Assembly: GCA_016219225.1 (NCBI GenBank)
Contig: JACRBX010000202.1
Span: 741 to 64,740, forward strand
Source: Deltaproteobacteria bacterium
GTDB taxonomy: Bacteria > Desulfobacterota > RBG-13-43-22
Length of the DNA stretch: 64,000 nt
Direction of reading: 5' to 3'
In this document: positions 1,712 through 55,990 of the stretch, piece after piece
Position numbering within the stretch: position 1 is the first letter of the stretch
How the letters are laid out: each line of letters starts with the position of its first letter
Program-made: the position numbers and the translations under genes
Notes under the pieces: model-generated
The model's database searches: none
Told to the model about the DNA's origin: nothing
What the model saw: the letters and a program-made list of their open reading frames with translations, nothing else

Positions 1712-2911
1712 ATGAAAAAGGGAAGAACTATTATTGGGTTACTGGGTATTTTTTTGTCAGTATTTCTTATCGGAACCCCCGACCTCATGGCCCAAAGCCC
1801 CAAGGGTTTAAAAATCGGGGTCTCAACCACTTTAACCGGGCCGGCCTCCTTTATAGGATGGCATGATAAAAATGGGGCCATCCTGACGGCCGAAGAGATT
1901 AACGAACGGGGAGGGGTCACCATAAAAGGGGAAAAGCATAAGGTCGAATTGGAAATATTTGATAACGAGACCAAGCCTGCTAAGGCCGTGGAAGGGATGC
2001 GTCTGTTTGCCGAGAAGGGCATCCATATCTCCCTCGGACCTCAATTGACCCCCATCACCCTGGCCTCCCTGAAATTCAACGAAGAGCTGAAGATCATCTT
2101 TGCTTCTTATAATACCACTCCTGAAGTCTTCGAACAGGGTAATAAGCTCCTCTTAAGCGCTACAGCCAACCAGAAATGGACCATGGGCTTGAGCACCTAT
2201 ACTGCCGCCAAAATATTGAAGGTGAAACGAGTGGCCCTTCTTCTGGATACCACCGGATTCGGGAGGTCGGTGGAGAAGCGCTTCAGCGAGTATTTTAAAA
2301 AATTCGGCGGAGAAGTGGTGGCCGTGGAGTGGTATGATATGGGTTCTACGGACTTCTATCCTCAGCTCACCCGGCTGAAGGCCAAAAATCCGGATGGAAT
2401 CCAAATCGGTGGGGCGGCAGCCGAGGTGGTAACCCTCATCCGTCAGGCCCGGGAGGTCCTGGGGAAAAAGATTTTGATCCTGGGATCGGATTATGTCAAG
2501 TTCGATCAATTGAAAAAAGCCGGCCTGGAGGTGTCTGAAAACACTTTAATCCCCCTCTCCGGGTTCCATATCATCGACAATAAGGCCCATAAGGAATTTG
2601 TCAAGAAATATAAAGACCGTTTTGGTTCCGAACCGGAGACCTATGCCGCATTAGTCCGTGACGAAATGCTTTATTTGACCCGGGCGGCGGAAATCGCCGG
2701 AACGGCCACGGATGCTTTTAAGATTCGAGAGGCCGTGGACAAGGCCATCGTCGAGCTGGATTCCCAGGGGAGGCTCATATCCGGGGCCCATGGCGGGTTT
2801 TTGCCCTCAGGGCTGGCCAAGAATTATTATATCAGCTCCAACCTGCTGCAGAACGGTAAACTGGTTCGTATCAAGACCATTTCCAGCCTGAAGGAAATCG
2901 GGGTGGAGTAG
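1712..2911 (+). CDS. ABC transporter periplasmic substrate-binding protein, LivK/type-I PBP family
   Basis: Signal peptide followed by a KIGVSTTLTGPASFIG...EINERGG motif. Gene order SBP-permease-permease-ATPase-ATPase. RBS AAGGAGG upstream. Confidence 0.9.
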   Translation: MKKGRTIIGLLGIFLSVFLIGTPDLMAQSPKGLKIGVSTTLTGPASFIGWHDKNGAILTAEEINERGGVTIKGEKHKVELEIFDNETKPAKAVEGMRLFAEKGIHISLGPQLTPITLASLKFNEELKIIFASYNTTPEVFEQGNKLLLSATANQKWTMGLSTYTAAKILKVKRVALLLDTTGFGRSVEKRFSEYFKKFGGEVVAVEWYDMGSTDFYPQLTRLKAKNPDGIQIGGAAAEVVTLIRQAREVLGKKILILGSDYVKFDQLKKAGLEVSENTLIPLSGFHIIDNKAHKEFVKKYKDRFGSEPETYAALVRDEMLYLTRAAEIAGTATDAFKIREAVDKAIVELDSQGRLISGAHGGFLPSGLAKNYYISSNLLQNGKLVRIKTISSLKEIGVE

Positions 2912-2918
2912 GGGCCAA

Positions 2919-3791
2919 ATGGGAACAGCCATCTTTCTGCAACAGGTGATCAACGGATTGGTGGTCGGGTCGATTTATGCCATGGTGGCCCTGGGTTTGA
3001 CCCTGATATTCGGCATCCTGCACATCGGCAATTTTGCCCATGGACAACTCTACATGCTCGGCGCCTTTGCCACCTATTGGATGGTCACGCTCTGGGGATG
3101 GAATATCTGGCTGGCTATGCTTGCGGCCATGGGACTCATGGCCCTTTTGGGCATCATTCTGGAGCGCATGGTCTTCCGGCCGGTCCATTCCGCCCCCCAT
3201 ATCAACGGGCTTATTGTCGCCCTGGGGCTCTTCATTGTCCTGGAGAATCTGGCTTTTATTCTCTGGGGCGGCGAAGAACGCATGTTGCCCTCACCCTATG
3301 CCACCAAAACAATTTCCTTCCTGAGCCTCACATTAACCATCCAGCGTCTCCTGGTCTTCATCGTAGCCGTTCTTTTGATCTTCTTACTTTACCTGTTTAT
3401 TCAGCGAACCAAAATGGGTAAGGCCATCCGGGCCGTGGCCCTGGATTCCGAGGTGGCTCGATTGATGGGTATCCCGATCCATCGTATCTCGGCTACGGTC
3501 TTTGCCGTCAGTTCGGCCCTGGCTGCGGCCGCCGGGGCCCTGGTCGGGCCGATTTTTTCGGTTTTTCCGGCCATGGGCTTGAGTCCTATCCTCAAGGCCT
3601 TTGTGGTGATCGTCATCGGAGGCATGGGTTCCATCCCGGGGGCGATTTTTGGCGGGTATGTTCTGGGCATAGCCGAAAGCCTGGGCGCCGGCTACCTTTC
3701 CTCCCAGTATAAAGACGGGTTCGCTTTTTTGGCTTTGATTGTGGTCCTGATGATTAAACCCACCGGGTTATTCGGAAAAAAAGAGGGATAA
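2919..3791 (+). CDS. ABC transporter permease, LivH-like
   Basis: Polytopic membrane protein with a conserved GYVLGIAESLG C-terminal LivH signature. Confidence 0.9.
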   Translation: MGTAIFLQQVINGLVVGSIYAMVALGLTLIFGILHIGNFAHGQLYMLGAFATYWMVTLWGWNIWLAMLAAMGLMALLGIILERMVFRPVHSAPHINGLIVALGLFIVLENLAFILWGGEERMLPSPYATKTISFLSLTLTIQRLLVFIVAVLLIFLLYLFIQRTKMGKAIRAVALDSEVARLMGIPIHRISATVFAVSSALAAAAGALVGPIFSVFPAMGLSPILKAFVVIVIGGMGSIPGAIFGGYVLGIAESLGAGYLSSQYKDGFAFLALIVVLMIKPTGLFGKKEG

Positions 3792-3799
3792 GGATTTTT

Positions 3800-4744
3800 A
3801 TGAAAAACAAGATCGGTTTGGTAACACTTCTGACGGCGCTGGTTATTTTACCTTTTTTCCTCTCCAAGACGCTGCTCCACCTGGCCGTTATCATCGAAAT
3901 TCATGCTATTCTGACCCTGAGCCTGTGCCTGGTGGTGGGCTATGTGGGACAACTTTCCCTCTGTCATGCCGGGTTCTATGGCATCGGGGCCTATACCTCG
4001 GCTCTGTTGACCTTTGCCCATTGGCCCTTCTGGATAACCCTGCCCCTATCCGGGGTCGTCAGCGGTCTCTTCGGCCTTTTCGTCGGCTTTCCTTCGCTCA
4101 AAACCAGGGGGATCTATTTTTCCATCACTACCATGTCCTTCGGGGTGCTTATCGCCATGGTGTTGAATAACTGGATCTCCCTGACCAACGGTCCGGACGG
4201 GTTATCGGGGATCAAAAGTCCGGAGCCCATCTCCCTTTTTAATGGGGCAGCCCTGTCTTTTAAGAATCCTATCCATTATTATTTTCTGGTGGGCTTTTTC
4301 CTGTTGTTTACCGTCCTGGTCATCAGTCGCCTTTTACGGTCCCGGGTCGGACGGGCCTTTATCGGGGTTCGGAACAACGAGACCCTGGCCTGGTCCCTAG
4401 GTATTAATTCGATGCGCTACAAATTGACTGCCTTTATTATCGCTGCTGTTTTTGCCGGATTGGCCGGAAGCCTGTATGCCCATTATCTGCGTTATATCTG
4501 CCCGAAGGATTTCGGACTTCACGAATCCTTCGACATGCTGGTCATGGTGGTGGTGGGTGGGGCCCAGACCCTTCTGGGGCCCATAGTCGGTGCCCTGTTT
4601 GTTCTGGGCCTGCCTAAATTTTTCGGATTTGAACCGGTCTACGGACGGGTGGCCTTCGGCATCATTCTGATTATGGTCATGATCTTCATGCCCCGGGGCA
4701 TCGTAGGAAAATGGCAGGAGTATTTTAAGTCATCCAGAGGATAA
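3800..4744 (+). CDS. ABC transporter permease, LivM-like
   Basis: Hydrophobic 314-aa protein with a LivM-type GQLSLCHAGFYGIGAY motif. Confidence 0.9.
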   Translation: MKNKIGLVTLLTALVILPFFLSKTLLHLAVIIEIHAILTLSLCLVVGYVGQLSLCHAGFYGIGAYTSALLTFAHWPFWITLPLSGVVSGLFGLFVGFPSLKTRGIYFSITTMSFGVLIAMVLNNWISLTNGPDGLSGIKSPEPISLFNGAALSFKNPIHYYFLVGFFLLFTVLVISRLLRSRVGRAFIGVRNNETLAWSLGINSMRYKLTAFIIAAVFAGLAGSLYAHYLRYICPKDFGLHESFDMLVMVVVGGAQTLLGPIVGALFVLGLPKFFGFEPVYGRVAFGIILIMVMIFMPRGIVGKWQEYFKSSRG

Positions 4745-4748
4745 TTAA

Positions 4749-5519
4749 ATGAACATCCTTGAAATGGAAGAGGTCTGTAAATCTTTCGGTGGATTAGCTG
4801 CCGTAACCAAACTGAATTTTTCCCTTTCCAGTCCTCAAGAAATTTTGGGCCTTATCGGGCCCAATGGGGCCGGTAAAACTACGGTCTTTAATCTGATTAC
4901 CGGGCTTCACCATCCCACGAACGGGAAGATCCGGTTCAAGGGGCAAGAGATCGGAGGGGAAAAACCCTACCGGATAGCCAGGCAGGGAATCTCCCGAACC
5001 TTCCAGACCACCTCCCTCTTTTTTGAGGAAACCGTTTTAACCAATATGTTGATTTCCCGGCATTGCCGCTTAAAATCAGGGCTTTGGGGGGCACTGGCTA
5101 TCCCAGGTGCGACGAGAGAAGAAGAGCGAAAAGCCTTTGAAAAGGCAGGAGAGATCCTGGAAGATACCGGCCTCGGGTCAAAGGCGAAAGATTATCCCCA
5201 TAATCTGACTAATGCCGAGCAGCGCATGCTGATGATTGCCATGGCCCTGGCCACGGACCCGGCCCTTATCCTTCTCGATGAACCTTTTGCCGGAATGAGG
5301 CACCATGAGACGGAAGTCCTTATGGAGTTGGTTCGAAAAATCAGCGGCTGGGGGATCGCCACGATTCTGATCGAGCACGACATGAAGGTGGTCATGAATA
5401 TCTGTGATCGCCTTGTGGTCTTGAATTTCGGGACAAAGATCGCTGAAGGCACACCTGACGAAATCAGGACCAACCCCCAGGTGGTCGAAGCCTACCTGGG
5501 CAGGAGAAGCCATGCTTAA
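4749..5519 (+). CDS. ABC transporter ATP-binding protein, LivG-like
   Basis: Walker A GPNGAGKTT and an LLDEP signature. C-terminal EAYLG. Confidence 0.9.
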   Translation: MNILEMEEVCKSFGGLAAVTKLNFSLSSPQEILGLIGPNGAGKTTVFNLITGLHHPTNGKIRFKGQEIGGEKPYRIARQGISRTFQTTSLFFEETVLTNMLISRHCRLKSGLWGALAIPGATREEERKAFEKAGEILEDTGLGSKAKDYPHNLTNAEQRMLMIAMALATDPALILLDEPFAGMRHHETEVLMELVRKISGWGIATILIEHDMKVVMNICDRLVVLNFGTKIAEGTPDEIRTNPQVVEAYLGRRSHA

Positions 5520-6216
5520 GATTAGAAGTCTATCCGTCCATTACAGCAATATCCAGGTCTTGAAAGAAGTATCCCTTGATATCGAGGCCGGGGAGATCGT
5601 CGCCTTCATCGGGGCCAATGGGGCGGGGAAAACAACCACCCTGAAGGGCATCTCGGGCCTGAAAGGGATCTCCTCCGGGACCATCGAATTCTTGGGACAG
5701 GAGATCAATAGCCTGTCGCCCGAAGCGATCGTCCGGAAAGGCATTGCCCACTGCCCGGAGGGAAGGCGGATTTTTTCCGAACTCACGGTGAAGGAAAATC
5801 TGGAGATAGGGGCCTATTGCCGGAATGACCGGGCCGGCGTTTCTCAGGATATGGAAGAGGTCATGTCTTTTTTCCCGATTCTCAAAGAGAAACAGGCCCA
5901 GTCCGGAGGGACCCTTTCCGGCGGCCAACAGCAGATGCTGGCCATCGCCCGGTCCCTGATGGCCCGCCCCAAACTTCTGATGCTCGACGAACCTTCTCTG
6001 GGACTGGGACCGATCATCGTGGATGAAATTTTTTCCATCATCCACCGGATCAGTCAGCAAGGAACCACCATTTTGCTTGTGGAGCAAAACGCCCGAATGG
6101 CCCTGGAATTGGCCCATAAGGCCTATGTCCTGGAAACGGGGGCCATAACGCTCCAGGGAAAGGCCTCCGAACTGATTGATAACGACCATGTCATCAAAGC
6201 CTACCTGGGGGGATGA
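5512..6216 (+). CDS. ABC transporter ATP-binding protein, LivF-like
   Basis: Walker A GANGAGKTT and an LSGGQQQMLAIAR signature. Overlaps the upstream ATPase gene, consistent with one operon. Confidence 0.9.
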   Translation: MLKIRSLSVHYSNIQVLKEVSLDIEAGEIVAFIGANGAGKTTTLKGISGLKGISSGTIEFLGQEINSLSPEAIVRKGIAHCPEGRRIFSELTVKENLEIGAYCRNDRAGVSQDMEEVMSFFPILKEKQAQSGGTLSGGQQQMLAIARSLMARPKLLMLDEPSLGLGPIIVDEIFSIIHRISQQGTTILLVEQNARMALELAHKAYVLETGAITLQGKASELIDNDHVIKAYLGG

Positions 6217-7728: not shown

Positions 7729-7742
7729 ACAGTATTTTGGAA

Positions 7743-7768
7743 ACAGCCGAGGGCGGCTGTTCTACATT
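7743..7768 (+). terminator. Putative intrinsic terminator after the CoA-transferase gene (ACAGCCG-aggg-CGGCTGT hairpin followed by tctacatt)
   Basis: 7-bp GC-rich stem 15 nt after the stop codon. The following T-tract is weak. Confidence 0.35.
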
Positions 7769-7790
7769 AAAAAATTCTATATTCGCACTA

Positions 7791-7935
7791 AGCCCTCATG
7801 TCCGCGTGAGCACCACGAAGCATGAAAAAACCGAATTTTTAATTTCGAATAATGAATATCGAAGGAGAGTTTCTTTAAAATTCCGAAATCCGAAATCCGA
7901 AATCGAAAATCGGATTCAATTTTCGAACTAAGGAG
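7791..7935 (+). repeat. Composite interspersed element: family E hairpin unit (agccctcatg..caccacgaagcatgaaaa), then a family D unit (cgaataatgaatatcgaag), then gagtttctttaaaattccgaaatccgaaatccgaaatcgaaaatcggattcaattttcgaactaaggag, ending at the RBS of the next gene
   Basis: A second copy of the about 100-nt distal part lies at 55190..55290, again ending in an RBS before an unrelated gene. Confidence 0.8.
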
Positions 7936-7943
7936 ATTATATA

Positions 7944-9257
7944 ATGGAGGGGTTGTATCTTGAAGGAATAAGGGTGGTGGATATCACCGTGGTCTGGGCC
8001 GGACCCTATGCGACGCAGATTCTGGCCGACTGGGGGGCGGAGGTCATTCGGATAGAGTCCTGTCAGCACTGGATGGTCCATACCCGGGGCACCCAGGCCA
8101 GGCCGCCGCAGGATACCATAAACCGCCAAACCTCTTTGCCCTGGTATCGGGGATATCCGGGATGGAAGGCCCACCCCAGGTCCTGGAACCGATTTCCCTG
8201 GTTCAATACCCATGCCAGAAATAAGCTTTCCATGACAGTGGATCTAAGCCGGCCGGAAGGGATGGATATATTCTGGAGGTTGATCGGGGAAGCGGATATT
8301 TTTATAGAAAACAACTCACCGGATACCCTGGATAAAATGGGCATTACCTATGAAAAGCTCCAGGAACAGAAACCGGATATCATCATGATCCGGATGCCCG
8401 GCTGGGCCCTGAGCGGGCCCTACCGGAATTATCGGGCCTTCGGATCGCACATGGAACATACCTGCGGTCATAGCGCTATTCGGGGCTACAGGGATTTGCC
8501 ACCCACCTCGCTGACCAGTGCCTTTCACTGCGATGCGGTTTCCGGGGGCACCGCTGCCTTTGCCGCGGTGATGGCCCTGCGTCAAAGGGATCGCACCGGA
8601 AAGGGGCAGCTTATCGAGATACCCCAGATTGAAAGCATGATTCCTCAAATGGGGCAGTCTATCATGGATTACACCATGAACGGCCGGGTGCAGCAGACGG
8701 TCGGAAACTGGGACCCCTCGCTGGCCACGGCCCCCCATAATTGTTACCGCTGCCAGGGGGATGACCGCTGGATCAATATCACCGTCACCTCGGAAAAGGA
8801 ATGGCAGGCCCTTTGCCGGATTATGGAGGATCCTCCCTGGACCCGGGAGGATCGCTTTGCCGATGCCCAAAGTCGTGTCAAAAATCAGGAGGCCCTGGAC
8901 GGGTTGGTGGAAGAATGGACGATCCGGCAGGATCCTATAATGCTGATGCACCGGCTTCAGGCAGCCGGGGTCCCGGCCGGTGCGGTCTTCAATGCCGAAG
9001 ATGCCTATAAGGATCCCCAGCTTGATGAGCGGGGTTTTTTCCAGCCCTTGACCCAGGAAGACTGCGGCACCCATCTCTATCACGGACTCGACTGGAAGGC
9101 CTCCAAAACGCCCAATGCCTTGCGCTTGCCCCCATGCCGGCTGGGAGAGCACAACGAATATGTCTACAAAAAGGTCATCGGCGTCTCGGACGAGGAATAC
9201 GCCCGGTTGGAAGAGGAAGGCCATATCGGGATGGATTTCATCCCATCCATTCCCTGA
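7944..9257 (+). CDS. Family III CoA-transferase
   Basis: GIRVVDITVVWAGPYATQILADWGAEVIRIE motif. AAGGAG RBS. It is adjacent to another family III member and so may be a heterodimer partner. Confidence 0.85.
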   Translation: MEGLYLEGIRVVDITVVWAGPYATQILADWGAEVIRIESCQHWMVHTRGTQARPPQDTINRQTSLPWYRGYPGWKAHPRSWNRFPWFNTHARNKLSMTVDLSRPEGMDIFWRLIGEADIFIENNSPDTLDKMGITYEKLQEQKPDIIMIRMPGWALSGPYRNYRAFGSHMEHTCGHSAIRGYRDLPPTSLTSAFHCDAVSGGTAAFAAVMALRQRDRTGKGQLIEIPQIESMIPQMGQSIMDYTMNGRVQQTVGNWDPSLATAPHNCYRCQGDDRWINITVTSEKEWQALCRIMEDPPWTREDRFADAQSRVKNQEALDGLVEEWTIRQDPIMLMHRLQAAGVPAGAVFNAEDAYKDPQLDERGFFQPLTQEDCGTHLYHGLDWKASKTPNALRLPPCRLGEHNEYVYKKVIGVSDEEYARLEEEGHIGMDFIPSIP

Positions 9258-9280: not shown

Positions 9281-9331
9281 TCGGGGATCGGGGGTCGGGG
9301 GTCGGGGATCAGGGATCAGGGATCGGGGATC
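9281..9331. repeat. Tandem short-period repeat (tcggggatc / gggggtc / agggatc units)
   Basis: Seen directly in the sequence. G-rich 7-9-mers in tandem. Confidence 0.7.
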
Positions 9332-9401
9332 TGTTGAAGGAAAGTTTCAGGGTTCAAGTTGCAAGTGGGACTTGACAACCCTGTGAAAAGTCCCCAATGC
9401 C

Positions 9402-9470
9402 GTCACCCCGGCGAAAGCCGGGGTCCGGAAGTAATTGAATGCCCTGGATTCCGGCTTTCGCCGGAATGAA
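9402..9470. repeat. REP/BIME-like inverted pair: left unit gtcaCCccggcGAAAgccggGGtccgg, right unit cctggattccggctttcgccggaatga
   Basis: Each unit is a hairpin with a GAAA (GNRA) loop. The left unit carries compensatory changes (TT..AA to CC..GG) relative to the other copies, which preserves the stem. Confidence 0.8.
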
Positions 9471-9539
9471 GTTTCGCGGGGTTCGGCGATTTTTTACGAA
9501 TTGAACGGACTTAAATTGTGAAAGAGGGGATTTTTTAAC

Positions 9540-11921: not shown

Positions 11922-13076
11922 ATGAAGGGAATCCTGAAAGGTGCGGTAGTTGTTTTCTGGTGTTCGGCATTATTTTTTATCTTTCATAGTAAGGCTGTGA
12001 GTCAGGAGATCAATATCGGCTTTACCGACCCCTTGACCGGACCGGCGGCTTATATCGGGATCGACGCCATGCACGGGGCCATGATTGCCGCCAAGGAGAT
12101 CAATGACGCCGGCGGGGTATTAGTGGCCGGGAAGAAGTATAAGGTAACGATCCGGACCTATGATGATGAAGGGGTCGGGGCCAAGGCCGTAGCCGGGATG
12201 CAACGATTGAAGGACAAATATGAGGTCCCGGTGATTATTCAAAACATCAGCGGTTCTATCATGGCCATGCTGGAAAAAAACGAGAAGATGGGCGTTTTGC
12301 TGATCGGTTTTTTCAGACATCCCCAGGCCACCAAGGTGGGTAACAAGTTGGTCCTGCGCCATCAACAATCCATCGAGGAAGATGCCATGAGCCTGGTCAA
12401 AGAGACCATGAACTTATTGAAAGTCAAGACCTATGCCATGATTTCCGATGTAAGCGATTACGGCAAATCCTCGGCCAAGGCCTATCAGGGGGCCTTTGAT
12501 AAATTGGGGATCAAGATAGTGGCTAATGAGTGGCTGGATCAACGCACCCAGACCGATTTTCGGGGGCAACTGACCAAGATCAAGGGCGCTAACCCCGATG
12601 TGATCATGCTTTCGGCCTATGATGAAGCAGCGGCCGGGGTCATCAAACAGGCCCATGAGCTGGGGATCAAGACCCCCTTTGCCGTTTCCACAGGCTTCCA
12701 GGCCATGGGCGAGAAACTGACGGGACCGGATATAATTGAAGGCTATTTAAAACCCCTTTCCTATTATGCCCAACTTCCTCCGCCACCGGGTGTGACCCGT
12801 TATAAGAGCCAATTGTATCCGGCCATGGGATACAAGGAACCGATCAGCATGTACGGTATGGCTTGCTACTCCATGGTCCATATTATCACCCAGGCCATGC
12901 AAAAGGCCGGTACGACTACCGACGCGGTTAAAATACGTCAAGCCGCTCCCACGATTTTTCCGATTAATGAGAACCACAATCTCTATGGAATGAAATCTTT
13001 TAAGGAAGACGGCGATGGGGTCCTGATCCTTAAAATAGGCCGGTACCAAAAAGGGAAACTGATCCCGATCAATTAG
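11922..13076 (+). CDS. Orphan LivK-type ABC substrate-binding protein (no adjacent permease or ATPase)
   Basis: Signal peptide followed by QEINIGFTDPLTGPAAYIG. About 80% identical to the SBP at 38433..39575. GAGGAGG RBS before ATG 11922. Confidence 0.85.
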   Translation: MKGILKGAVVVFWCSALFFIFHSKAVSQEINIGFTDPLTGPAAYIGIDAMHGAMIAAKEINDAGGVLVAGKKYKVTIRTYDDEGVGAKAVAGMQRLKDKYEVPVIIQNISGSIMAMLEKNEKMGVLLIGFFRHPQATKVGNKLVLRHQQSIEEDAMSLVKETMNLLKVKTYAMISDVSDYGKSSAKAYQGAFDKLGIKIVANEWLDQRTQTDFRGQLTKIKGANPDVIMLSAYDEAAAGVIKQAHELGIKTPFAVSTGFQAMGEKLTGPDIIEGYLKPLSYYAQLPPPPGVTRYKSQLYPAMGYKEPISMYGMACYSMVHIITQAMQKAGTTTDAVKIRQAAPTIFPINENHNLYGMKSFKEDGDGVLILKIGRYQKGKLIPIN

Positions 13077-13088
13077 GGAAAAGAAAAT

Positions 13089-14819: not shown

Positions 14820-14845
14820 TTCGATCTATTGAGCTTTGATCTCCT

Positions 14846-14942
14846 GTAGGGTGGGTGTAACGAAGTGAAACCCACCAATAAAAAAATGAAGTGAACCCCA
14901 TCAGGTTTATTGGTGGGTTCCGTTTCACTCCACCCACCCTAC
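14846..14942. repeat. Long imperfect hairpin element: two 12-bp stems (gtagggtgggtg/cacccaccctac and cccaccaataaa/tttattggtggg) with an internal loop
   Basis: Seen directly, about 70 nt after the carboxyltransferase stop. Could act as a terminator or be a REP-like structured element. Confidence 0.65.
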
Positions 14943-14949
14943 AAGCTTT

Positions 14950-15023
14950 CTCGCTAAGTCATTCCCGTTTTCACGGAAATGACGGAGAAGTTGTCGATGT
15001 GTTTTCAAAAAGCTAAACTGATA
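14950..15023. repeat. Solo REP-like unit (gtcattcccgttttcacggaaatgacggagaag) plus a conserved tail ttgtcg..ttttcaaaaagctaaactga
   Basis: The same tail (gacggagcgattgtcggcgctttttgaaaaagctaaactga) follows the REP pair at the window end (63959..64000). Confidence 0.7.
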
Positions 15024-23297: not shown

Positions 23298-23307
23298 AGG
23301 GCGATTA

Positions 23308-24165
23308 ATGAGTTTCCCATTTTTTATACAGGTCCTGGTCAACGGGCTGATGCTGGGGCTGACCTATGCCTTAATTGCTTCCGGCTTCAGCCTGATCTAT
23401 GGCATCATGCGGCTGTTAAACTTTGCCCATGGCGATTTTTATATGTTAGGGGCCTTCGCCACCTACCTCCTGTGTGAACGGTTAGGGATGGATTATTTTT
23501 CAGCCCTGTTGCTGAGCATGGTCCTGGTTGCCCTTCTGGGAGTCATCACCTATCATTTCTTCTTCCGGCCCTTCCGGGATCAACACGACCCCAGTGTGGT
23601 CATCGCCCTGGGCGTGGCCATGTTGATCGGCGGCCTGGCTCCTCTGGTCTTCGGAGAGAAGGACCAGTCCGTAACGCCGGTCTTTTCAGGGGTTGTCCGG
23701 TTTTTAGGGGCCACCCTTTCCCTGGAGAGGATCTTTGTCATTGCCATGGCCATTGTCCTGATGATCGCTTTAACCTTGTTTATTAAATTCACCAAAATGG
23801 GACAATCCATGCGGGCCGTGGCCCAGGATCAGGAAGCGGCCGCCCTCCAGGGCATCGGGGTCAATTCCACCTTCATGATGTGCATGGCCATCAGTTCCGC
23901 CCTGGCCGGGGCCGCCGGGTCCCTGCTGGCCCCCCTTTTTGTGGTCAATCCTTTCATCGGCACCCATGCCGTGCTCAAGGCCCTGGTTGTGGTGGTCATC
24001 GGCGGGATGGGCAGCATCCCCGGAGCGATTGCCGGGGGTCTTCTCTTGGGATTTGTAGAAAGTATCGGGAACACCTTTTTAGGCGGGGTAACGGAGATCC
24101 TGGGCTTTGTGATCGTTATGCTGGTCCTGATCTTTAAGCCCCAGGGACTGTTCGGCCATGGGTAA
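23308..24165 (+). CDS. ABC transporter permease, LivH-like
   Basis: Polytopic membrane protein with a C-terminal LGFVESIG signature. Confidence 0.9.
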   Translation: MSFPFFIQVLVNGLMLGLTYALIASGFSLIYGIMRLLNFAHGDFYMLGAFATYLLCERLGMDYFSALLLSMVLVALLGVITYHFFFRPFRDQHDPSVVIALGVAMLIGGLAPLVFGEKDQSVTPVFSGVVRFLGATLSLERIFVIAMAIVLMIALTLFIKFTKMGQSMRAVAQDQEAAALQGIGVNSTFMMCMAISSALAGAAGSLLAPLFVVNPFIGTHAVLKALVVVVIGGMGSIPGAIAGGLLLGFVESIGNTFLGGVTEILGFVIVMLVLIFKPQGLFGHG

Positions 24166-25099
24166 GCGCAAATTGGGGTATCTGATTTTATTCATTCTCC
24201 TGGCGGCTTTTCCGATCTTCAACCAGGATCCTTTTATATTACACATCCTGATTACCACCGGGATCTGGGCGACTTCCGTCTGGGGGGTCAGACTGATCAT
24301 GTCCACCGGACAGTTGACCCTGGGACATGCCGCCTATATGGCCGTAGGGGCCTATGCCTCGGCTCTATTGGTCATGAAGGCCGGGTTTTCCTTCTGGCTG
24401 GCCCTGCCGCTGGCCGGCCTGATCGCGGCCCTGGTGGCGCTTTTGATCGGCTATCCGACCTTGCGTATCAAAGGGGTTTATTTTGCCATCATCACCTTTG
24501 CCTTTGCCGAGATCGTCCGCTTGATCATCGTCAACTGGCCCGGTTTTTTAGGGGGGTCCGGCGGGATTCCCGGTATCCCCTCTCCCTCCCCTTTTTTTTC
24601 CATCCCTTTCAGCGGCCGGGTCCCTTTCTACTATCTGATTTTATTTATATCACTAGTGACCTTTCTGGTCATGAGGGGTATTGATAAAAGCCGGATCGGA
24701 AAAATTTTTTCAGCCATTCACGAAAGCGACGATCTGTCCCAATCCTTTGGTATCAATATAATGAAATACAAACTGATTGCCTTCTGTCTGGGCTGTTTTT
24801 TCGCCGGGTTGAGTGGAAGTTTTTACGTCCATTACTATAATTTTGCCAGTCCGGAGTTTTTTACCATCTGGCAATCCGTTTATTGCCTCCTTTTTGTCAT
24901 CGTCGGAGGGGTCGGCGGTGTTTTCGGACCCCTTTTGGGCTCATTTTTTATGACCCTGGTGCCTGAATTTTTACGGGAAACCAAGGAATATGAACCGGTG
25001 ATTTACGCCGTTATTCTGATCCTGGTCATGTTTTTGCTGCCCGGAGGATTGATTACGCTGCCGGCGCGGTTGGGAAGAAAAAAAGGCCACAAAGAATGA
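24158..25099 (+). CDS. ABC transporter permease, LivM-like
   Basis: Hydrophobic protein that overlaps the upstream permease gene. Confidence 0.9.
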   Translation: MGKRKLGYLILFILLAAFPIFNQDPFILHILITTGIWATSVWGVRLIMSTGQLTLGHAAYMAVGAYASALLVMKAGFSFWLALPLAGLIAALVALLIGYPTLRIKGVYFAIITFAFAEIVRLIIVNWPGFLGGSGGIPGIPSPSPFFSIPFSGRVPFYYLILFISLVTFLVMRGIDKSRIGKIFSAIHESDDLSQSFGINIMKYKLIAFCLGCFFAGLSGSFYVHYYNFASPEFFTIWQSVYCLLFVIVGGVGGVFGPLLGSFFMTLVPEFLRETKEYEPVIYAVILILVMFLLPGGLITLPARLGRKKGHKE

Positions 25100-25100
25100 A

Positions 25101-25232
25101 AATATCGAATAACGAATAATGAATGTCGAAGGAAATAAAAGCGAGGTTCAATGTTCAACGTTGAACCTTAAACCGAAACCTTGAGTCTTTGTTACTTCAT
25201 GATTCGAAATTCGGTGTTCGATATTCGATATT
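25101..25232. repeat. Family D unit (aatatcgaataacgaataatgaatgtcgaag) and its inverted copy (cttcatgattcgaaattcggtgttcgatattcgatattcg) flanking a central perfect palindrome ggttcaatgttcaacgttgaacc (25145-25167)
   Basis: Seen directly. MITE-like architecture. Confidence 0.75.
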
Positions 25233-25262
25233 CGTATTTTTGATCCAAGGATTCAAAAATCG

Positions 25263-26027
25263 ATGCTCTTAACTATCGAAAATGTAACCAAAAACTTCGG
25301 CGGGCTGGCGGCCCTTTGGAATTTGAGTTTCCAGGTTAATGAAGGGGAAATCCTTGGGCTGCTGGGACCCAATGGTTCGGGCAAGACTACGCTTTTTAAT
25401 GTGGTCAGCGGATTTTTTTCCCCTTCGGCCGGCCGGGTCTTTTTTAATGGCCGGGATATTACCGGATTTCGGCCCAACAAGATCGCCCAATTCGGTTTGG
25501 TACGCACCTTTCAAGGAACCAATCTATTCAAGAACCGGACGGTTTGGGAAAATGTGGTTATTGCCCACCACCTGATGATCAAGGCCAATTTCCTGGAACT
25601 TCTTCTAAACCAAGTGCGGGCCAAAACAAGTGAAGCAGCCGTCGAGAGGCACAGCAAGGAAATCCTGGAGTATCTGGGCCTTTTAGCCGTCAGGGAAGAT
25701 CTGGCCCATAATCTGCCCCATGGCCTTCAGCGGGCCTTGGGGGTGGCCATTGCCCTGGCGGCCCAGCCCCGGTTGCTGCTGCTGGACGAGCCTCTGACCG
25801 GAATGAACCCGGAGGAGTCCCGAAGGTTTATCGATTTGATTCGGGGTCTGCGGGACAGGGGGATCACCCTGATGATCGTGGAACACGATATGAAGGCCAT
25901 CATGGGTGTCAGTGACCGGATAGTCGTCCTTAATTATGGACAAAAGATCGCTGAAGGTCCTCCCCAGGAGATCCAACGGGACCCCAAGGTAATTGAGGCC
26001 TATCTGGGAAGCGAGGTTCCGGTATGA
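25263..26027 (+). CDS. ABC transporter ATP-binding protein, LivG-like
   Basis: Walker A GPNGSGKTT and an LLLDEP signature. Confidence 0.9.
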   Translation: MLLTIENVTKNFGGLAALWNLSFQVNEGEILGLLGPNGSGKTTLFNVVSGFFSPSAGRVFFNGRDITGFRPNKIAQFGLVRTFQGTNLFKNRTVWENVVIAHHLMIKANFLELLLNQVRAKTSEAAVERHSKEILEYLGLLAVREDLAHNLPHGLQRALGVAIALAAQPRLLLLDEPLTGMNPEESRRFIDLIRGLRDRGITLMIVEHDMKAIMGVSDRIVVLNYGQKIAEGPPQEIQRDPKVIEAYLGSEVPV

Positions 26028-26743
26028 CCCAACTATCCTGGTTTTCTTTGCAGAACCTGAAGGTTTCTTACGGAGCCGCCCCGGCCCTGAAGGGAATCTC
26101 CTTACAAGTCGAGACTGGGAATATCGTTACCCTCATCGGGTCGAATGGCGCCGGAAAAAGCACGACCTTACGGGCTATATCCGGATTGGTCCCCCTGGCA
26201 GAAGGGGAGATTTTTTTTGAAGGAAAAAAGATTCATGGTCTTTCTCCACAGGAAATTGTCCATCGCGGAATCGCCCATGTCCCTGAAGGCAGAAGGGTCT
26301 TCCCGTTCATGACCGTTCTCGAAAATCTGAAAATGGGGGCTTTTCGCCGCAAGGATAAGAAAGAGATCCGGATGGACCTGGAAAAGCTCTTTGAGCACTT
26401 TCCGGTTTTGCGGGACAGACAGGCTCAAAGGGCCGGGAGTCTCAGTGGAGGAGAACAACAGATGCTGGCCATTGGCCGGGCCTTGATGTCCCAACCGCGG
26501 TTACTCCTTTTAGATGAACCTTCCATGGGTTTGGCTCCCATAATGGTCCAGGAATTAAGCCGGATAATCATCGAGATCAACCAGAGGAATGTGGGTATCA
26601 TCATCGTTGAGCAAAATGCCCAAATGGCCCTGCGCCTGGCCCATCAGGCCTATGTGTTGGAAACGGGATCGGTTGTTTTGGAAGGAAAGGCTTCGGACCT
26701 GATCCATGATGAACACATCCGAAAGGCGTATTTGGGGGGATGA
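26024..26743 (+). CDS. ABC transporter ATP-binding protein, LivF-like
   Basis: GSNGAGKST and an LSGGEQQMLAIGRAL signature. Confidence 0.9.
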   Translation: MTQLSWFSLQNLKVSYGAAPALKGISLQVETGNIVTLIGSNGAGKSTTLRAISGLVPLAEGEIFFEGKKIHGLSPQEIVHRGIAHVPEGRRVFPFMTVLENLKMGAFRRKDKKEIRMDLEKLFEHFPVLRDRQAQRAGSLSGGEQQMLAIGRALMSQPRLLLLDEPSMGLAPIMVQELSRIIIEINQRNVGIIIVEQNAQMALRLAHQAYVLETGSVVLEGKASDLIHDEHIRKAYLGG

Positions 26744-26747
26744 AAGA

Positions 26748-26816
26748 AAGGTACAAGGTATAAGGTGCAGGGTGTAAGGTAAAATCTCAAACCTTAAACC
26801 CTCAACCTAGAACCTT
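26748..26816. repeat. Family G: aaggt-period tandem repeat and its inverted copy (caaggtataaggtgcagggtgtaaggt ... accttaaaccctcaacctagaacctt)
   Basis: A related copy lies at 52338..52375. Confidence 0.7.
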
Positions 26817-28614: not shown

Positions 28615-28646
28615 AATTCATAAAAAGTCCCTATGCGCGCATATTC

Positions 28647-28724
28647 GTCATTCCCGTGAAAACGGGAATCCAGTGCTTTTAAGCAGTCACGAGTTGACTG
28701 GATTCCCGCCTTCGCGGGAATGAC
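28647..28724. repeat. REP/BIME-like inverted pair (gtcATTCCCGTgaaaACGGGAATccag, a 24-nt spacer, then ctggATTCCCGCcttcGCGGGAATgac)
   Basis: Two 8-bp-stem hairpins in opposite orientation. Homologous to the elements at 9402, 43298 and 63886. Confidence 0.85.
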
Positions 28725-28838
28725 GAGTTTTTGCGAGTTAATCAGGATTGTATTTTCCCCTTTCTTGTCGAAGGGTAAAAAAATCCAATTAATCCCTTTT
28801 AAAAGTAATTTAATACACATCAATCGCGGAGGCCATAA

Positions 28839-33046: not shown

Positions 33047-34204
33047 ATGAGTAGAGCGCTTGAAGGGATCAAGGTTTTGGATCTGGGAAGCTATATCGCC
33101 GGCCCCTATTGTTGTATGCTTTTGGCGGATCATGGGGCCGAGGTCATCCGGGTGGAGCCGCCGATGGGTAAGGTGGATCGTGAACTGGGCCCCTATTCGC
33201 CGGACGGCCAGCCCATGTCCTTCGGTTTGACGATACAGCGAAACAAGAAAAATATCACCTTAAACTTAAAGTCCGAAGCGGGAAAGCGACTTTTAGAGGA
33301 ATTGGTTAAAAAGGCCGATATCCTGGTGCACAATTCTCCTAAAGGATCGGAAGAGGCCCGGGTCCTCGAATATGAGCGTTTGAGCAGGATCAATCCGGCT
33401 TTGATCGTTGTGGCCATATCCGGCTTCGGGCAGAACGGCCCTTATGCGGAGCGGCCTTGCTTTGATGCCATTGCCCAGGCCATGTCCGGTTCCATGCCCT
33501 TCACCGGATATCCGGGATTGCCGCCCCTCAGGGCCGCCCTCCCTTATATCGATTTCAATACAGCGGCCCGGGCCGCTTTCGGGGCTATGATGGCCTATGT
33601 GGAGCGTCAGACGAGCGGCCGGGGGCAGCTTGTCGACATTGCCCTCTTTGACGTGGCCTTCTCCATAGTGGGCTCCGTGGGGTGTGCGGCCGAATACCTG
33701 CTCCTGGGTGAATTGCGAAAACAAGTCGGTAATGGGGGGTTCTATGCCTATTGCTGCAGTGCCTCGGCAAAAGACGGCTACCTGATGATCAATATCGTCG
33801 GCAATAGTATGTGGCGGCGCATGTGCCGGGTCCTGGGTCGGGAGGATCTGGCTAAAGATCCGCGCTTTAAAGATAATCTGCAACGCTACCGGAACTATGA
33901 GGCCATTGATCCGATCCTGGGGGATTGGATCAGAGATAAAACGATAGCCGAAGCCATGCGAATACTGGATGAAGCCGGTATCCCCTGCGGTCCGGTCAAT
34001 GATGTCTCCCGGACCCTGGAGGTGCCGCAAATTAAGGCCCGGGAAATGCTGATCGAACTCGACTATCCCGTCACCGGAAAAATTCCGGTTCCAGGGGTGG
34101 ATATCAAACTATCGAGAACACCGGGCCGGGTGGCTAAACGGGCATCTTTGTTGGGAGAAGACAATGAATCCATTTACTGCTGGCTTCTCGGCTATGAACC
34201 GTAA
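33047..34204 (+). CDS. Family III CoA-transferase (paralog of 465..1667)
   Basis: GIKVLDLGSYIAGPYCCMLLADHGAEVIRVE motif. Its start codon abuts the upstream stop codon. Confidence 0.9.
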   Translation: MSRALEGIKVLDLGSYIAGPYCCMLLADHGAEVIRVEPPMGKVDRELGPYSPDGQPMSFGLTIQRNKKNITLNLKSEAGKRLLEELVKKADILVHNSPKGSEEARVLEYERLSRINPALIVVAISGFGQNGPYAERPCFDAIAQAMSGSMPFTGYPGLPPLRAALPYIDFNTAARAAFGAMMAYVERQTSGRGQLVDIALFDVAFSIVGSVGCAAEYLLLGELRKQVGNGGFYAYCCSASAKDGYLMINIVGNSMWRRMCRVLGREDLAKDPRFKDNLQRYRNYEAIDPILGDWIRDKTIAEAMRILDEAGIPCGPVNDVSRTLEVPQIKAREMLIELDYPVTGKIPVPGVDIKLSRTPGRVAKRASLLGEDNESIYCWLLGYEP

Positions 34205-39575: not shown

Positions 39576-39645
39576 AGAAAAAAAGTTTCAAGTTTCAAGA
39601 TGCAAGTCAAGACACCATTTTCAAACTGGTATAGGGGTATGAGCG

Positions 39646-52498: not shown

Positions 52499-53344
52499 AT
52501 GACTAAATTGCAGCCAACTACTCTGGTTTTAGAAAACTCCGAACTCCGAACTCCGAACTCCGAACTGCCCAATCAGAAGGGCCATCCAGAGGTAAGGACC
52601 CGAAAAACATCAGTGGTGATCCTGATAATCCTCCTGGCTTGTCTGGCCGCCTGTGCCACACCTTCTCAAACCAAGGAGCAGGCTCTGTCCCATTTGCGCC
52701 TGGGGGACTCGATGCTGCAGGAAGGCCGACCCACCCAGGCTTTGGCCGAACTGATCAAGGCCAATGATTTAGACCCCAGCAACCCGGTGATTCGAAATGT
52801 TCTGGGAATCGCTTATCTGGAAAAGGGGATGGTCCGCCAGGCTATTTATCAGTTTGAGAAGGCCCTCTACCTCAATCCCGATTATGTGGAGGTGCATAAT
52901 AACCTGGGCACGGCCCTGCTCCGGGATGGGAGGGTGAAGGAGTCCATCCCGGAGTTTAACAAGGCCCTTGAAGATCCGTTGTACACGACGCCCCATTTTG
53001 TTCAATACAATTTGGGCCAGGCCTACTATGCCCTTCAGGAATATGATAAGGCCCAGGAATACTTCCAGGAGGCGATCAAAAGCTCACCGGGCTACAGCCT
53101 GGCCTATCACGGTTTAGGGTTGACCTTGCAGGCCACCCAACACCTGGATGAGGCGGCAGAGGCCTTTAAAAAGGCTATTGAACATGCACCCCGATATGCC
53201 CGGGCCCATTACGACTTAGGGGAGGTGCTGGTTCAGTTGAATCAACAATCCTTGGCCCGACTGGCTTTTAAAGAAGTGATCGGTTTGGATCCCGAAGGTC
53301 CATTGGGCAAGAAGGCCCAACAGAGATTAAAGGAGATCAAATAA
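52499..53344 (+). CDS. TPR-repeat lipoprotein (PilF/PilW-like fold)
   Basis: RTRKTSVVILIILLACLAAC lipoprotein signal followed by more than 5 TPR motifs. Start uncertain: the track start 52499 includes 22 codons encoded by a family C repeat (ENSELRTPNSELPN). Confidence 0.7.
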   Translation: MTKLQPTTLVLENSELRTPNSELPNQKGHPEVRTRKTSVVILIILLACLAACATPSQTKEQALSHLRLGDSMLQEGRPTQALAELIKANDLDPSNPVIRNVLGIAYLEKGMVRQAIYQFEKALYLNPDYVEVHNNLGTALLRDGRVKESIPEFNKALEDPLYTTPHFVQYNLGQAYYALQEYDKAQEYFQEAIKSSPGYSLAYHGLGLTLQATQHLDEAAEAFKKAIEHAPRYARAHYDLGEVLVQLNQQSLARLAFKEVIGLDPEGPLGKKAQQRLKEIK

Positions 53345-54592: not shown

Positions 54593-55185
54593 TTATCCAT
54601 TCAGCGGAATTTCTCAGAAGTGGACTGAAGGCCGTTCATTTTCCTCAAACCGGTCTGCCGGAGATTGCCTTTGCCGGTCGTTCCAATGTCGGGAAATCTT
54701 CTTTAATAAACGCCCTCTTAGGGCGAAAATCCCTGGTCCGGACCAGCCGAAGACCGGGTCAAACCCGGTTGTTGAATTTTTTTTTGGTTAATGAGGATTT
54801 TGTTTTAGTAGACTTGCCGGGTTATGGATTTTCCAAGGCTCCCAAGGAAGTCATCCGGAGCTATCAACAAGCCATGTCGGGCTATCTGAAAACGAGAAAG
54901 ACCCTGGTTTCGGTGGTGATTTTGTTGGATATCCGGCGTCTCCCCAGTACTGAAGATAAAGGTTTCCAGCGGCTGGTGCAATCTTGCGGCCTTGATCCTT
55001 TATGGGTTCTGACCAAATCAGACACCGTGGGACGAGGCTCCTGGAAACGGGCCTGGTCAATGATCTCCGAAGAACTGGGCCATCCGGACGGTAAGCCCAT
55101 TTTTTTTTCAGCCAGAACAGGACAGGGCAGAGAAGAAATCTGGGACGAGATTGAGCGGAGGTTGAAGGGCACCGATGAAGCCTGA
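54589..55185 (+). CDS. engB: Ribosome biogenesis GTP-binding protein YsxC/EngB
   Basis: EIAFAGRSNVGKSSLINAL G1 motif and DLPGYG G3 motif. Start overlaps the upstream stop. Confidence 0.9.
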   Translation: MIIHSAEFLRSGLKAVHFPQTGLPEIAFAGRSNVGKSSLINALLGRKSLVRTSRRPGQTRLLNFFLVNEDFVLVDLPGYGFSKAPKEVIRSYQQAMSGYLKTRKTLVSVVILLDIRRLPSTEDKGFQRLVQSCGLDPLWVLTKSDTVGRGSWKRAWSMISEELGHPDGKPIFFSARTGQGREEIWDEIERRLKGTDEA

Positions 55186-55189
55186 AAAA

Positions 55190-55290
55190 GCGAATATCGA
55201 AAATCGAATCATGAATGTTGAAGGAGAGTTTCTTTTAAATTCCGAAATCCGAAATCCGAAATTGGAATTTATTTTCGAACTAAAGAAAGG
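55190..55290 (+). repeat. Second copy of the composite about 100-nt element (family D unit plus gagtttcttttaaattccgaaatccgaaatccgaaattggaatttattttcgaactaaagaaagg) ending at the RBS of the next gene
   Basis: Homologous to 7843..7935. Both copies lie immediately 5' of an ATG. Confidence 0.8.
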
Positions 55291-55295
55291 AAAAA

Positions 55296-55990
55296 TGATG
55301 AAACCAAAAAAGAGAATGCAGTTGGTAACCGTTTTAGTGGCAATGACATTTTTTCTGATTTCGACCTTGGCCTTAGCGGCGCCGCCCGATAATTTTACCG
55401 CCAAATTGATGATCATGGGCATGTCCATGCCGATGGCCAAAATGGGTAGCAAGACGAGAATGGAAAATATGATGATAGGTGGGCTGGTAACCATCAGTAT
55501 GATGGATGTCAATAAAAGTATTACCATGAATACCAAAAACAAGACCTATTTTGAAAGTGCTATCAAAGAAAAGGTTCCCTCTCTTTATGATCCCAAGGTG
55601 GTCATTGAAAAAAAGAAGATCGGATCGGAAACCATTGACGGTCATCCCTGTATCAAGTCCGATGCGGTATTTTATCTCAAGGACAAACCCCAGGAAAAAT
55701 TCAACGCCGTACTCTGGGAAGCTCAGGATTTAGGCGGGCTGCCCATCCGAAATGAAATGGTGGTGCCTGAAAGTAAAACCAAGGGCCCCGGCCCGGCAAA
55801 AATCGTAACTGAAATCAAAGACATTAAAGTGGGAGCGGCCAATGCCGGTATGTTTGAAGTCCCCAAAGACTACCAAAAGGTGAGCAGCATGAATGAAGTG
55901 ATGGGCATGGGACAACCAGGAGACATGAAGGGCATGCAGGAAATGATGAAGCAGATGCAAAAGATGAAAAAGATGCCCAAAGAGGAATAG
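55296..55990 (+). CDS. Secreted Met-rich protein of unknown function. Signal peptide, MxxM-type motifs and a C-terminal GMGQPGDMKGMQEMMKQMQKMKKM tail.
   Basis: Start at ATGATG 55296 with an AAAGAAAGGA RBS. The N-terminal 40 aa of the track ORF are repeat-derived. Met clusters resemble Cu(I)-binding periplasmic proteins. Confidence 0.6.

Follow-up and report, generated by a model that had tools for sequence, protein, structure and literature searches.

A composite intergenic repeat of heptanucleotide arrays and a hairpin box in a Desulfobacterota genome

Pneumococcal BOX (boxA-boxB(n)-boxC), RUP, Correia, and ERIC are modular repeats resembling miniature inverted-repeat transposable elements (MITEs), and they have reported effects on the expression of neighboring genes. 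REP sequences are defined as palindromes of 20 to 40 bp, one end of which carries GTAG or CGTC as an unpaired tag (PMC3733652). Heptanucleotide repeats, among them the cyanobacterial STRR, GGGNATC in Xanthomonas and Nostoc, TAACTGA in Beggiatoaceae, and GGGACCG and MTYCTGA in Geobacter metallireducens, are intergenic, often arranged as inverted pairs, variable between strains, and sometimes located just before start codons (PMC4692102, PMC4679880, PMC2700814); slipped-strand mispairing has been proposed for such arrays by Mrazek et al. (2007), as related in PMC4679880 and PMC4692102. Here we describe a composite repeat comparable to these heptanucleotide repeats, which occurs twice (copies A and B) in 64,000 nucleotides of a Deltaproteobacteria bacterium (GCA_016219225.1, contig JACRBX010000202.1, positions 741 to 64,740, forward strand). 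This whole 64-kb stretch, referred to as the window, was analyzed with an ungapped repeat finder, BLAST, Tandem Repeats Finder (TRF), nhmmer, Pfam, Rfam 15, and shuffled controls.

We found that one composite non-coding repeat, made up of tandem arrays of 7-base units, is present as A and B, and that contig L104 carries a third copy. An earlier, sequence-only reading of the window had reported a collinear pair about 85% identical, and this pair is real: the ungapped finder aligns 7826-7908 with 55185-55267 at 86% over 83 nt (family D9), the collinear copies span 7830-7931 and 55190-55283, and BLAST gives 93% over 59 nt for their central part (7845-7903 versus 55204-55262). The nonrepetitive 16-mer linker GAAGGAGAGTTTCTTT occurs exactly twice in the window, as does the exact 21-mer (CCGAAAT)3, for which shuffles predict no occurrence; the likeness of A and B is thus more than common low complexity. 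The third copy (L104:236-363) lies on a 4.1-kb contig, CAZDYX010000360, co-assembled with the window's closest metagenome-assembled genome (MAG); two of its blocks, of 72 nt and 44 nt, match B at 98% identity, and its identity to A is about 90%. A search of JGI metagenome contigs with the A/B linker returned two unrelated chance matches and no further copies. The same reading had called the repeat mobile; because B and the L104 copy are 98% identical and have different genes downstream, a repeated unit has been copied between unrelated loci, and mobility is plausible.

Alignment of A, B, and L104, together with comparison with 160 related sequences, gives the layout of the unit as a box, a module X, a module Y, and an R motif. 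The box is about 50 nt long, (T)ATTTTCGTAYTAA-ACCCTCATGCCCC-loop-GGGGCACCACGAAGCATGAAAAT, with hairpin arms CCCTCATGCCCC-loop-GGGGCACCACGAAGCATGAAAAT and a near-invariant tail, CACCACGAAGCATGAAAAT, and it is complete in A and L104. Module X is a (CGAATAT)-type array with the 3' end GAATRTYGAAGGAGAG, and module Y consists of the linker TTTCTTTWAAATT followed by (CCGAAAT)3-4. The R motif, ATTTTCGAACTAA (13 nt; general form ATTTTCGNAYTAA), is identical to the opening 13 nt of the box and has its inverted partner in GCATGAAAAT. All three copies share a nonrepetitive 22-nt linker, GAAGGAGAGTTTCTTTWAAATT, and the same R variant. At its two edges the box has ATTTTCGTAC...GCATGAAAAT, which form an imperfect inverted repeat of 10 nt that matches in 8 of 10 positions, and GAAAAT...ATTTTC encloses the filling as a helix that is 77% paired; as delimited in the sequence-only reading, the A/B unit lacks terminal inverted repeats. 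TRF lists both arrays of A and both of B. The parts of A and B are as follows.

7741-7765, + strand: small hairpin module (CAGCCGAGGGCGGCTG plus TTCTACA) at the 5' edge of mosaic A; the same motif lies 5' of the box in L056 and L124, and the scan does not call it a terminator.
7779-7829, + strand: box A, complete (ATATTCGCACTAA-GCCCTCATGTCC-GCG-TGAGCACCACGAAGCATGAAAAA), its first 13 nt being the R motif; nhmmer E = 1.9e-12, aligned with 160 other copies, inner hairpin covarying.
7830-7869, + strand: module X of A, a degenerate (CGAATAT)-type array ending in GAATATCGAAGGAGAG; repeat family D4, also at 25093, 40542, 55178, and 58680.
7870-7910, + strand: module Y of A, with linker TTTCTTTAAAATT, (CCGAAAT)3, and a degenerate fourth unit, CGAAAAT; TRF period 7, 4.0 copies, exact 21-mer match.
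7919-7931, + strand: R motif ATTTTCGAACTAA, the 3' end of A and the three-way homology limit; it pairs with the preceding TCGAAAAT.
7932-7946, + strand: native Shine-Dalgarno GGAG(AT) and ATG of a family III CoA-transferase gene (Pfam CoA_transf_3), outside the repeat; kept in L123/L124 and L125/L126.
55167-55189, + strand: box remnant of B (GGGCACCGATGAAGCCTGAAAAA), identified by alignment to boxes, overlapping the last codons and TGA stop (55183-55185) of a yihA/ysxC-like GTPase gene.
55190-55228, + strand: module X of B, a (CGAATAT)-type array ending in GAATGTTGAAGGAGAG; found by the repeat finder, by TRF, and from same-species copies.
55229-55262, + strand: module Y of B, with linker TTTCTTTTAAATT and (CCGAAAT)3; exact 21-mer match and TRF.
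55271-55283, + strand: R motif ATTTTCGAACTAA, the 3' end of B, from the A/B/L104 alignment.
55286-55300, + strand: Shine-Dalgarno AAAGGA and true start ATG (55298) belonging to the gene for a Met-rich protein, outside the repeat; the orthologue alignment begins at residue 42 of the long open reading frame (ORF).

The limits of the copies thus differ from those first proposed. On the 5' side these were too short, as A gains the complete box and the hairpin module (7779-7829 and 7741-7765) and B gains the box remnant (55167-55189), which reaches into a gene whose protein has a C-terminal tail that varies among homologues. The two sequences themselves are as had been described, but homology among A, B, and L104 does not run into the Shine-Dalgarno; it stops at CTAA (7931 and 55283), exactly at the TAA of the R motif. 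The start of the Met-rich gene, previously placed at 55296, moves to ATG 55298 by orthologue alignment, with an in-frame alternative at 55295. A distance of 6 to 10 nt to the ATG had been reported; from the end of the element to the start codon we count 12 nt (A), 14 nt (B), and 6 nt (L104), and all three full copies are co-oriented with the start codon that they precede. The predicted ORF artifacts are confirmed, both at 7737..7931 and as a 41-amino-acid N-terminal extension of 55175..55990.

The proposal that the repeat supplies the ribosome-binding site of its host genes is refuted for A and unsupported for the other copies, as the signals lie beyond the homology limit. The sequences 3' of R are GGAGATTATATAATG in A, AGAAAGGAAAAATGATG in B, and, lacking a Shine-Dalgarno, ATAATTATG in L104, and the AAAGGA of B is located 3 to 8 nt past the end of the repeat. 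Exact-protein look-ups of the window's CoA-transferase, GTPase, and Met-rich protein returned no record, and close homologues were used instead. In L123/L124, where the CoA-transferase is 98% identical, the A site has a box, (CTTGCAA)n and (CCCCGAY)n arrays, R, and then the same GGAGAT; in the 78% orthologue L125/L126 there is a 72-nt spacer with neither box nor element (GGAGGAGATTGAAATATG), yet GGAGGAGATT stands before the ATG. Because GGAGAT is kept both with another filling and without the element, the Shine-Dalgarno of A belongs to the gene. Orthologues of 82 to 84% identity have the two CoA-transferase genes only 7 to 13 nt apart, versus 215 nt in the window, so the spacer is an insertion into a once tight junction. 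Comparison of filled with short sites (215 nt versus 7 to 13 nt or 72 nt in orthologues) reveals no readable site-specific duplication; R, the direct repeat in the flanks, is not an ordinary target duplication, because every site has the same one.

A promoter in the element had also been suggested, but no sigma-70-like promoter is predicted in A or B, and an intrinsic terminator scan of both predicted none. Two further candidates were discarded. An upstream leader peptide running from the box ATG to the TAA of R is not favored by the reading frames, with TAA frames of 22:17:14 and four uninterrupted ORFs against zero and nine in control frames. A sigma-54 promoter in the box tail (GGCAC..AGCA) is, on inspection, one base short of the TGGCAC-N5-TTGC spacing; moreover, the GG of the tail is part of a covarying stem, and many copies have other bases in its place. 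As RNA, neither copy has extra stability relative to shuffles on the + strand (A, z = +0.1; B, z = +1.4) or on the - strand (A, z = -0.7; B, z = +0.9). Copy A sits between two CoA-transferase paralogues, and B lies between the yihA-like GTPase gene and the gene of unknown function that encodes the Met-rich protein.

Wherever a close strain was compared, the genes are 95 to 98% identical and the intergenic filling is different. Contig L050, from the MAG 'uncultured Thermodesulfobacteriota binchicken_co266_158' (CAZVHO01), is 96 to 98% identical to 50604-54964, so the window and this MAG represent the same species. Over 52334-52560 the window has AGTTCGG/CTCCGAA arms and L050 has CGTTCGN/CGAACGC arms; at 53345 the modules differ, and at 50940-51040 the array length differs. 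L123/L124 have different arrays between box and R at the A site. At the B site L127 (Logan contig SRR22387951_1672266) retains GAAGCATGAAAAAGG and then diverges, and an 81% relative (L128) has a box, (CGAACGC)n, and R in the same position. With different fillings at one site, and with B and the L104 copy 98% identical at different loci, units are evidently both replaced in place and copied between places. We note that L127 stops 33 nt past the yihA stop codon, within the repeat region, which suggests that the mosaics break short-read assemblies.

The modules are also found apart from the composite. In 230 kb of same-species DNA, the comparison set used for module counts, X and Y each have about 10 separate copies; these lie on both strands, in convergent regions, inside operons, and anti-oriented to neighboring genes, and TTTTAAATT(CCGAAAT)n stands alone in either orientation. 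Solo R motifs trail many arrays, and about 9 of roughly 25 in same-species DNA are within 20 nt of a start codon. At the level of modules and of the family, placement on both strands, in convergent 3' regions, and in anti-orientation is the outcome that the sequence-only reading had itself named as a refutation.

The box extends well beyond this species. A total of 167 nhmmer matches were obtained, and a scan with the box 19-mer GCACCACGAAGCATGAAAA, using one genome per species, found at least 120 loci. Among the matches listed, 23 loci are in the window's species and 14 in 'Candidatus Acetocimmeria pyornia' (Bacillota), and others are in MAGs labeled Syntrophales, Desulfobacteraceae, Dehalococcoidia/Chloroflexi (one on a 1.75-Mb contig), Acidobacteria, Schekmanbacteria, Latescibacterota, Planctomycetota (Scalindua), Thermodesulfovibrionia, and others; two Chitinophagaceae matches look like chance. 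By MAG label, the 19-mer is multicopy in at least eight phyla, and the identical 19-nt tail is found in Thermodesulfobacteriota, Bacillota, Chloroflexota, Acidobacteriota, Planctomycetota, Nitrospirota, Latescibacterota, and Schekmanbacteria. The 5' half of the box is a lineage-specific variant in each lineage, which argues against mis-binning.

Boxes are mostly in direct tandem, 50 to 200 nt apart, and the stretch from GAAAAT to the next ATTTTC is empty or a few bases long in some cases and filled by heptamer arrays or other hairpin repeats in others. In several MAGs labeled 'bacterium' (L057:5433-5629, L070:3752-3995, L059, L007, and L052), three or four boxes lie head to tail, 2 to 25 nt apart, with no heptamer arrays, and this may be the basic, unfilled state of the element. 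The inner stem covaries, with CG, GC, UA, and AU pairs all seen and 47 double-change cells in three pairs, a number that no shuffle reaches. The lower stem, UUCGUG/CAUGAG, is 97% paired and nearly invariant, and its G.U pairs, which exist only on the strand complementary to the search pattern, hint at a strand-specific single-stranded form. An alternative long-range helix (UUCGUGGUG with ..UACGAA) is 77% paired with one-sided changes only, and is indistinguishable from the hairpin model. Among same-strand gene pairs, 49 boxes are co-oriented and 27 anti-oriented with the genes, with 20 more in divergent and 13 in convergent spacers.

The neighborhoods of the boxes give no sign of a dedicated enzyme. 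Among 148 ORFs in 8-kb pieces around boxes, with 191 Pfam families, no family is common to more than three, no neighboring protein family is enriched, no transposase family adjoins a box, and no Y1 transposase (RAYT) was seen; the neighbors are unrelated housekeeping genes. For the window, Rfam 15 returned no match at the gathering score, and raising E to as much as 5 gave chance miRNA-type matches over hairpins; the window has no tRNA or tmRNA. The box is absent from 2.9 million viral contigs, element A has no match in plasmid and phage collections, and we found no paper with the box sequence in the searchable literature; searches on heptamer repeats led only to the general precedents cited above.

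Within the window there are five clear and about five degenerate boxes, and related mosaics combine boxes, arrays, R, and other hairpins. The principal members are as follows.

25085-25240, + strand: member C, in the spacer between a liv-type permease gene and an ABC ATPase gene, with a box remnant containing the TGA of the upstream gene, a (CGAATAA)n arm, a central hairpin, and an inverted (ATTCGAT)n arm; from the repeat finder.
38222-38277, - strand: box in opposite orientation after an (AGTTCGG)n array that trails a stop codon; nhmmer E = 1.8e-7.
40520-40765, + strand: member D, filling the spacer of two liv-type permease genes, with a box remnant, (CGAATAT)n, a full box (40609-40670), a GGGCGGGTTTAAAACCCGC hairpin, and (CCGCAAT)2; nhmmer box match.
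51032-51095, - strand: full box in opposite orientation, adjoining a (CCTATAG)n array and ending 2 nt before ATG 51081; nhmmer E = 5.4e-17.
58647-58786, + strand: member E, with a full box, (CGAATAT)4, GAATGTCGAAGTAAGG, (GTAACCC)-type units, and R (ATTTTCGTACTAA) at 58774-58786; nhmmer box match.

Members C and D separate cistrons of liv-type ABC transporter operons, and E, at 256 nt from the + strand gene, belongs to a divergent promoter region. As RNA, member C folds far better than its shuffles (z = -5.7). The box at 51032-51095 is kept in strain L050 although the adjacent array differs in length. Overall, TRF finds 31 period-7 arrays in the window (plus 6 rows at period 14), compared with 0 to 2 in shuffles, and 30 of the 31 fall in non-coding DNA, which makes up 9.4% of the window; the one exception is probably located upstream of a mis-called start. 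Arrays occupy 22 of the 35 spacers of at least 30 nt. Between same-strand genes, the median distance from the upstream stop to the first array is 10 nt, and that from the last array to the next start is 53 nt. Many arrays are inverted pairs that follow stop codons directly and could form long hairpins, and 14 of the 31 have units with a CGAA/TTCG core (hand count from the TRF list).

The family of A and B resembles BIME/REP and REPIN of E. coli and Pseudomonas in being short, abundant, and extragenic, a mosaic of a hairpin unit and short motifs that is non-coding, non-autonomous, strain-variable, and located between cistrons and after stop codons. It differs from REP in that the stem of the box hairpin, between CATGC... 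and ...GCACCACG, adjoins neither GTAG nor CGTC, and from BIMEs in that boxes are in direct tandem rather than in alternating orientation, the filling is made of heptamer arrays, no RAYT gene lies beside any copy in the 8-kb pieces, and the box tail is conserved across phyla. As in BOX, there are conserved end modules, a variable number of internal repeats, and intergenic positions near gene starts, but the internal repeat is 7 nt rather than 45 nt and has many unrelated sequences, and the distribution is over phyla rather than within one species; terminal inverted repeats with target duplications are not demonstrated for the A/B family. Like STRR, the 7-nt units are head to tail, enriched, non-coding, and varying between close strains (L050, L123/L124, and L127); unlike STRR-like repeats, there are dozens of heptamers in one genome, many framed by box and R, and composite units with a unique linker are copied between loci. 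An analogy, and only that, can be drawn with integron attC sites, in which conserved, imperfectly palindromic, strand-specific ends also frame a strain-variable middle; here, however, there are no R''/R' cores (RYYYAAC/GTTRRRY), the middle is non-coding and of low complexity, no integrase is nearby, and the copies are dispersed between core genes. The A/B repeat is therefore outside the REP superfamilies with GTAG or CGTC tags and outside the Rfam families, and its status as a MITE is undemonstrated, with neither a target duplication nor a transposase found.

The repeat is modular, it has entered a gene junction, its fillings are swapped between strains, near-identical copies occupy different loci, and it stops short of the native Shine-Dalgarno. 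We think it reasonably probable that the A/B repeat represents one of the assemblies of a modular intergenic mosaic of the BIME/BOX kind, non-coding and non-autonomous, that spreads by copying and grows by slippage. The unit would consist of the box with its covarying hairpin, a variable filling (here two heptanucleotide arrays and a unique linker), and the 13-nt R. Its conserved box and R ends would permit copying between loci, either by recombination or conversion between copies or through a trans-acting enzyme that recognizes the hairpin; the arrays would grow and shrink by slipped-strand mispairing, following the explanation published for heptamer repeats. From a stop codon to the next native ribosome-binding site, the mosaics would occupy all of the space not constrained by selection, and such packing would account for copies that reach to within a few bases of an ATG. 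The element brings neither a Shine-Dalgarno nor a promoter to A, and support for either is absent in the other copies; it is probably neutral for the host gene, or does no more than add an A/U-rich, weakly structured leader to the intercistronic RNA.

Several observations weigh against such a copying mosaic. No mobilizing enzyme, target-site duplication, or excision footprint was identified, so the argument for mobility is drawn from comparative patterns only. The shared orientation of the three full copies 6 to 14 nt before a start is weak evidence, but favors a 5' function. Some of the solo R motifs are close to start codons, and the bias of boxes toward co-orientation indicates that placement is non-random. 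The identity of the 19-mer across phyla exceeds what is expected of a purely selfish, drifting repeat, and hints at a conserved partner or function. In addition, A and B differ by 7 to 14%, which is above the strain divergence of the flanking genes, and the direction and timing of copying are therefore not readable. A related and more tentative possibility, which we regard as appreciably less probable than the copying mosaic, is that box and R form a cross-phylum docking or recombination site, not previously described, and that hypervariable fillings, heptamer arrays and CGTC-tagged REP hairpins among them, are made and exchanged like non-coding cassettes by a conserved host or mobile enzyme, with A and B being one such cassette after recent copying. 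The strand-specific hairpin, the invariant tail CCACGAAGCATGAAAAT, the direct-tandem arrays, and the self-similar end are the features behind it.

Other explanations assign the repeat a function in its host, and we consider these unlikely, for different reasons. Selection for a cis-acting RNA leader, whose A/U-rich arrays would offer ribosomes a standby or enhancer site, or S1, cold-shock, or CsrA-like proteins a platform, and so tune translation of the downstream cistron, fits the place and orientation of the three full copies, the unstructured + strand RNA of A and B, and their position in probable operons, where they are likely transcribed; the CGAA/TTCG core recurs in nearly half of the array units, and a role of this kind has been published as a hypothesis for the TAACTGA repeats of Beggiatoaceae (PMC4679880). 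A sequence-specific function is nonetheless hard to square with the unrelated heptamers that close strains carry at the same site; arrays are generally near stop rather than start codons and are on both strands, and the orthologous operon of relatives works with a junction of 7 to 13 nt. Marginally less likely still is a structural or protein-binding element like REP/BIME, serving as an mRNA 3'-end stabilizer or attenuator, or as a site for IHF or HU, binding of which has been suggested for the heptanucleotide multicopy elements of G. metallireducens (PMC2700814). Beyond that precedent, the inverted array pairs after stop codons, the strong fold of member C, the cross-phylum conservation of the tail, and the box itself, with its covarying hairpin and strand-specific lower stem with invariant G.U pairs, argue for it; the A/B composite, with two direct, noncomplementary arrays and no significant fold, does not behave in this way, nor does the scan of A and B predict an intrinsic terminator, and the box takes both orientations relative to transcription and has no known binding protein.

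The last two alternatives are far less probable. In the model of the sequence-only reading, a mobile element carries a Shine-Dalgarno, perhaps with a promoter, and so provides start signals to any gene downstream; the co-orientation of the three full copies with an ATG just beyond them is what this predicts, and the terminal AA of copy A does form part of AAGGAG. We judge it very improbable, as past CTAA the three copies are unrelated and L104 lacks the signal altogether, that of B is outside the repeat, no promoter-like site was found in A or B, and modules are also anti-oriented and in convergent regions; the presence of GGAGAT at the A site with another filling and without the element largely refutes it. 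Convergence, in which independent local slippage made similar arrays at two sites with no copying, is scarcely credible. Heptamer arrays do arise genome-wide, many with a CGAA core, but A, B, and L104 share the order of two arrays, the nonrepetitive 22-nt linker, and the R variant, and B and L104 are 98% identical; the shared unique linker already contradicts independent origins.

The mosaics have consequences for annotation, causing false ORFs and starts (7737..7931, and 55175 and 40661 as starts). Box remnants supply the TGA stops of a liv-type permease gene (25097-25099) and of the yihA-like gene (55183-55185). ATG 40661, the listed start of the next permease ORF, is inside a box, and the Pfam domain begins only at residue 60; this ATG is probably spurious, with the true start near 40766. 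Similarly, at 52499-52566 the start listed for ORF 52499..53344 is followed by a perfect (AACTCCG)4.6 array, the inverted partner of the array at 52385-52414, and because homology with L050 resumes only near 52643, this start is probably wrong.

The window also holds repeats of other types. A second family of paired hairpins, CGTCATTCCGGCGAAAGCCGGAATCCAG, at 9400-9480, 14957-14992, 28636-28735, 43294-43384, and 63885-63971, fits the CGTC-tagged REPs (PMC3733652). These CGTC-tagged hairpins are separate from the box (e.g., 63885-63963), and in other genomes hairpins of this type lie between box and R motif (L080, L115, and L030); the pair at 63862-63979 has a sub-threshold Rfam match to Wolbachia sRNA 46 (45 bits, versus a gathering score of 65). 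A (GGGGATC)7 array at 9281-9331 is of the GGGNATC type, G-rich heptamers reported to form quadruplexes and to be enriched in Xanthomonas and Nostoc (PMC4692102). A long hairpin of another type, at 14845-14943, is a 38-nt inverted repeat (TGTAGGGTGGGTGTAACGAAGTGAAACCCACCAATAAA) with arms 84% complementary and 23 nt apart, and has a chance-level Rfam match to a miRNA precursor. Large paralogous blocks, 71 to 81% identical in DNA, comprise 12002-13085 versus 38501-39584, 474-773 versus 33047-33346, and three liv-type ABC transporter clusters (around 2900-6200, 23300-26750, and 39600-43200); they hold sets of periplasmic-binding-protein, permease, and ATPase genes along with genes of acyl-CoA metabolism, a patchwork of duplicated catabolic operons.

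This genome is an extreme case of intergenic heptamer repeats, with nearly two-thirds of its spacers filled and the filling swapped between strains that are 95 to 98% identical in the adjacent genes. The main interest is in the system rather than in the A/B pair: hypervariable heptamer fillings are framed by a hairpin box that crosses phyla, and we found no description of it in searchable sources. If the box is the recognition site of a conserved enzyme, it would offer a testable route to the origin of bacterial heptamer repeats and of their 7-nt length; if it is not, the mosaics would still be a marker for strain typing and a caution for gene callers.

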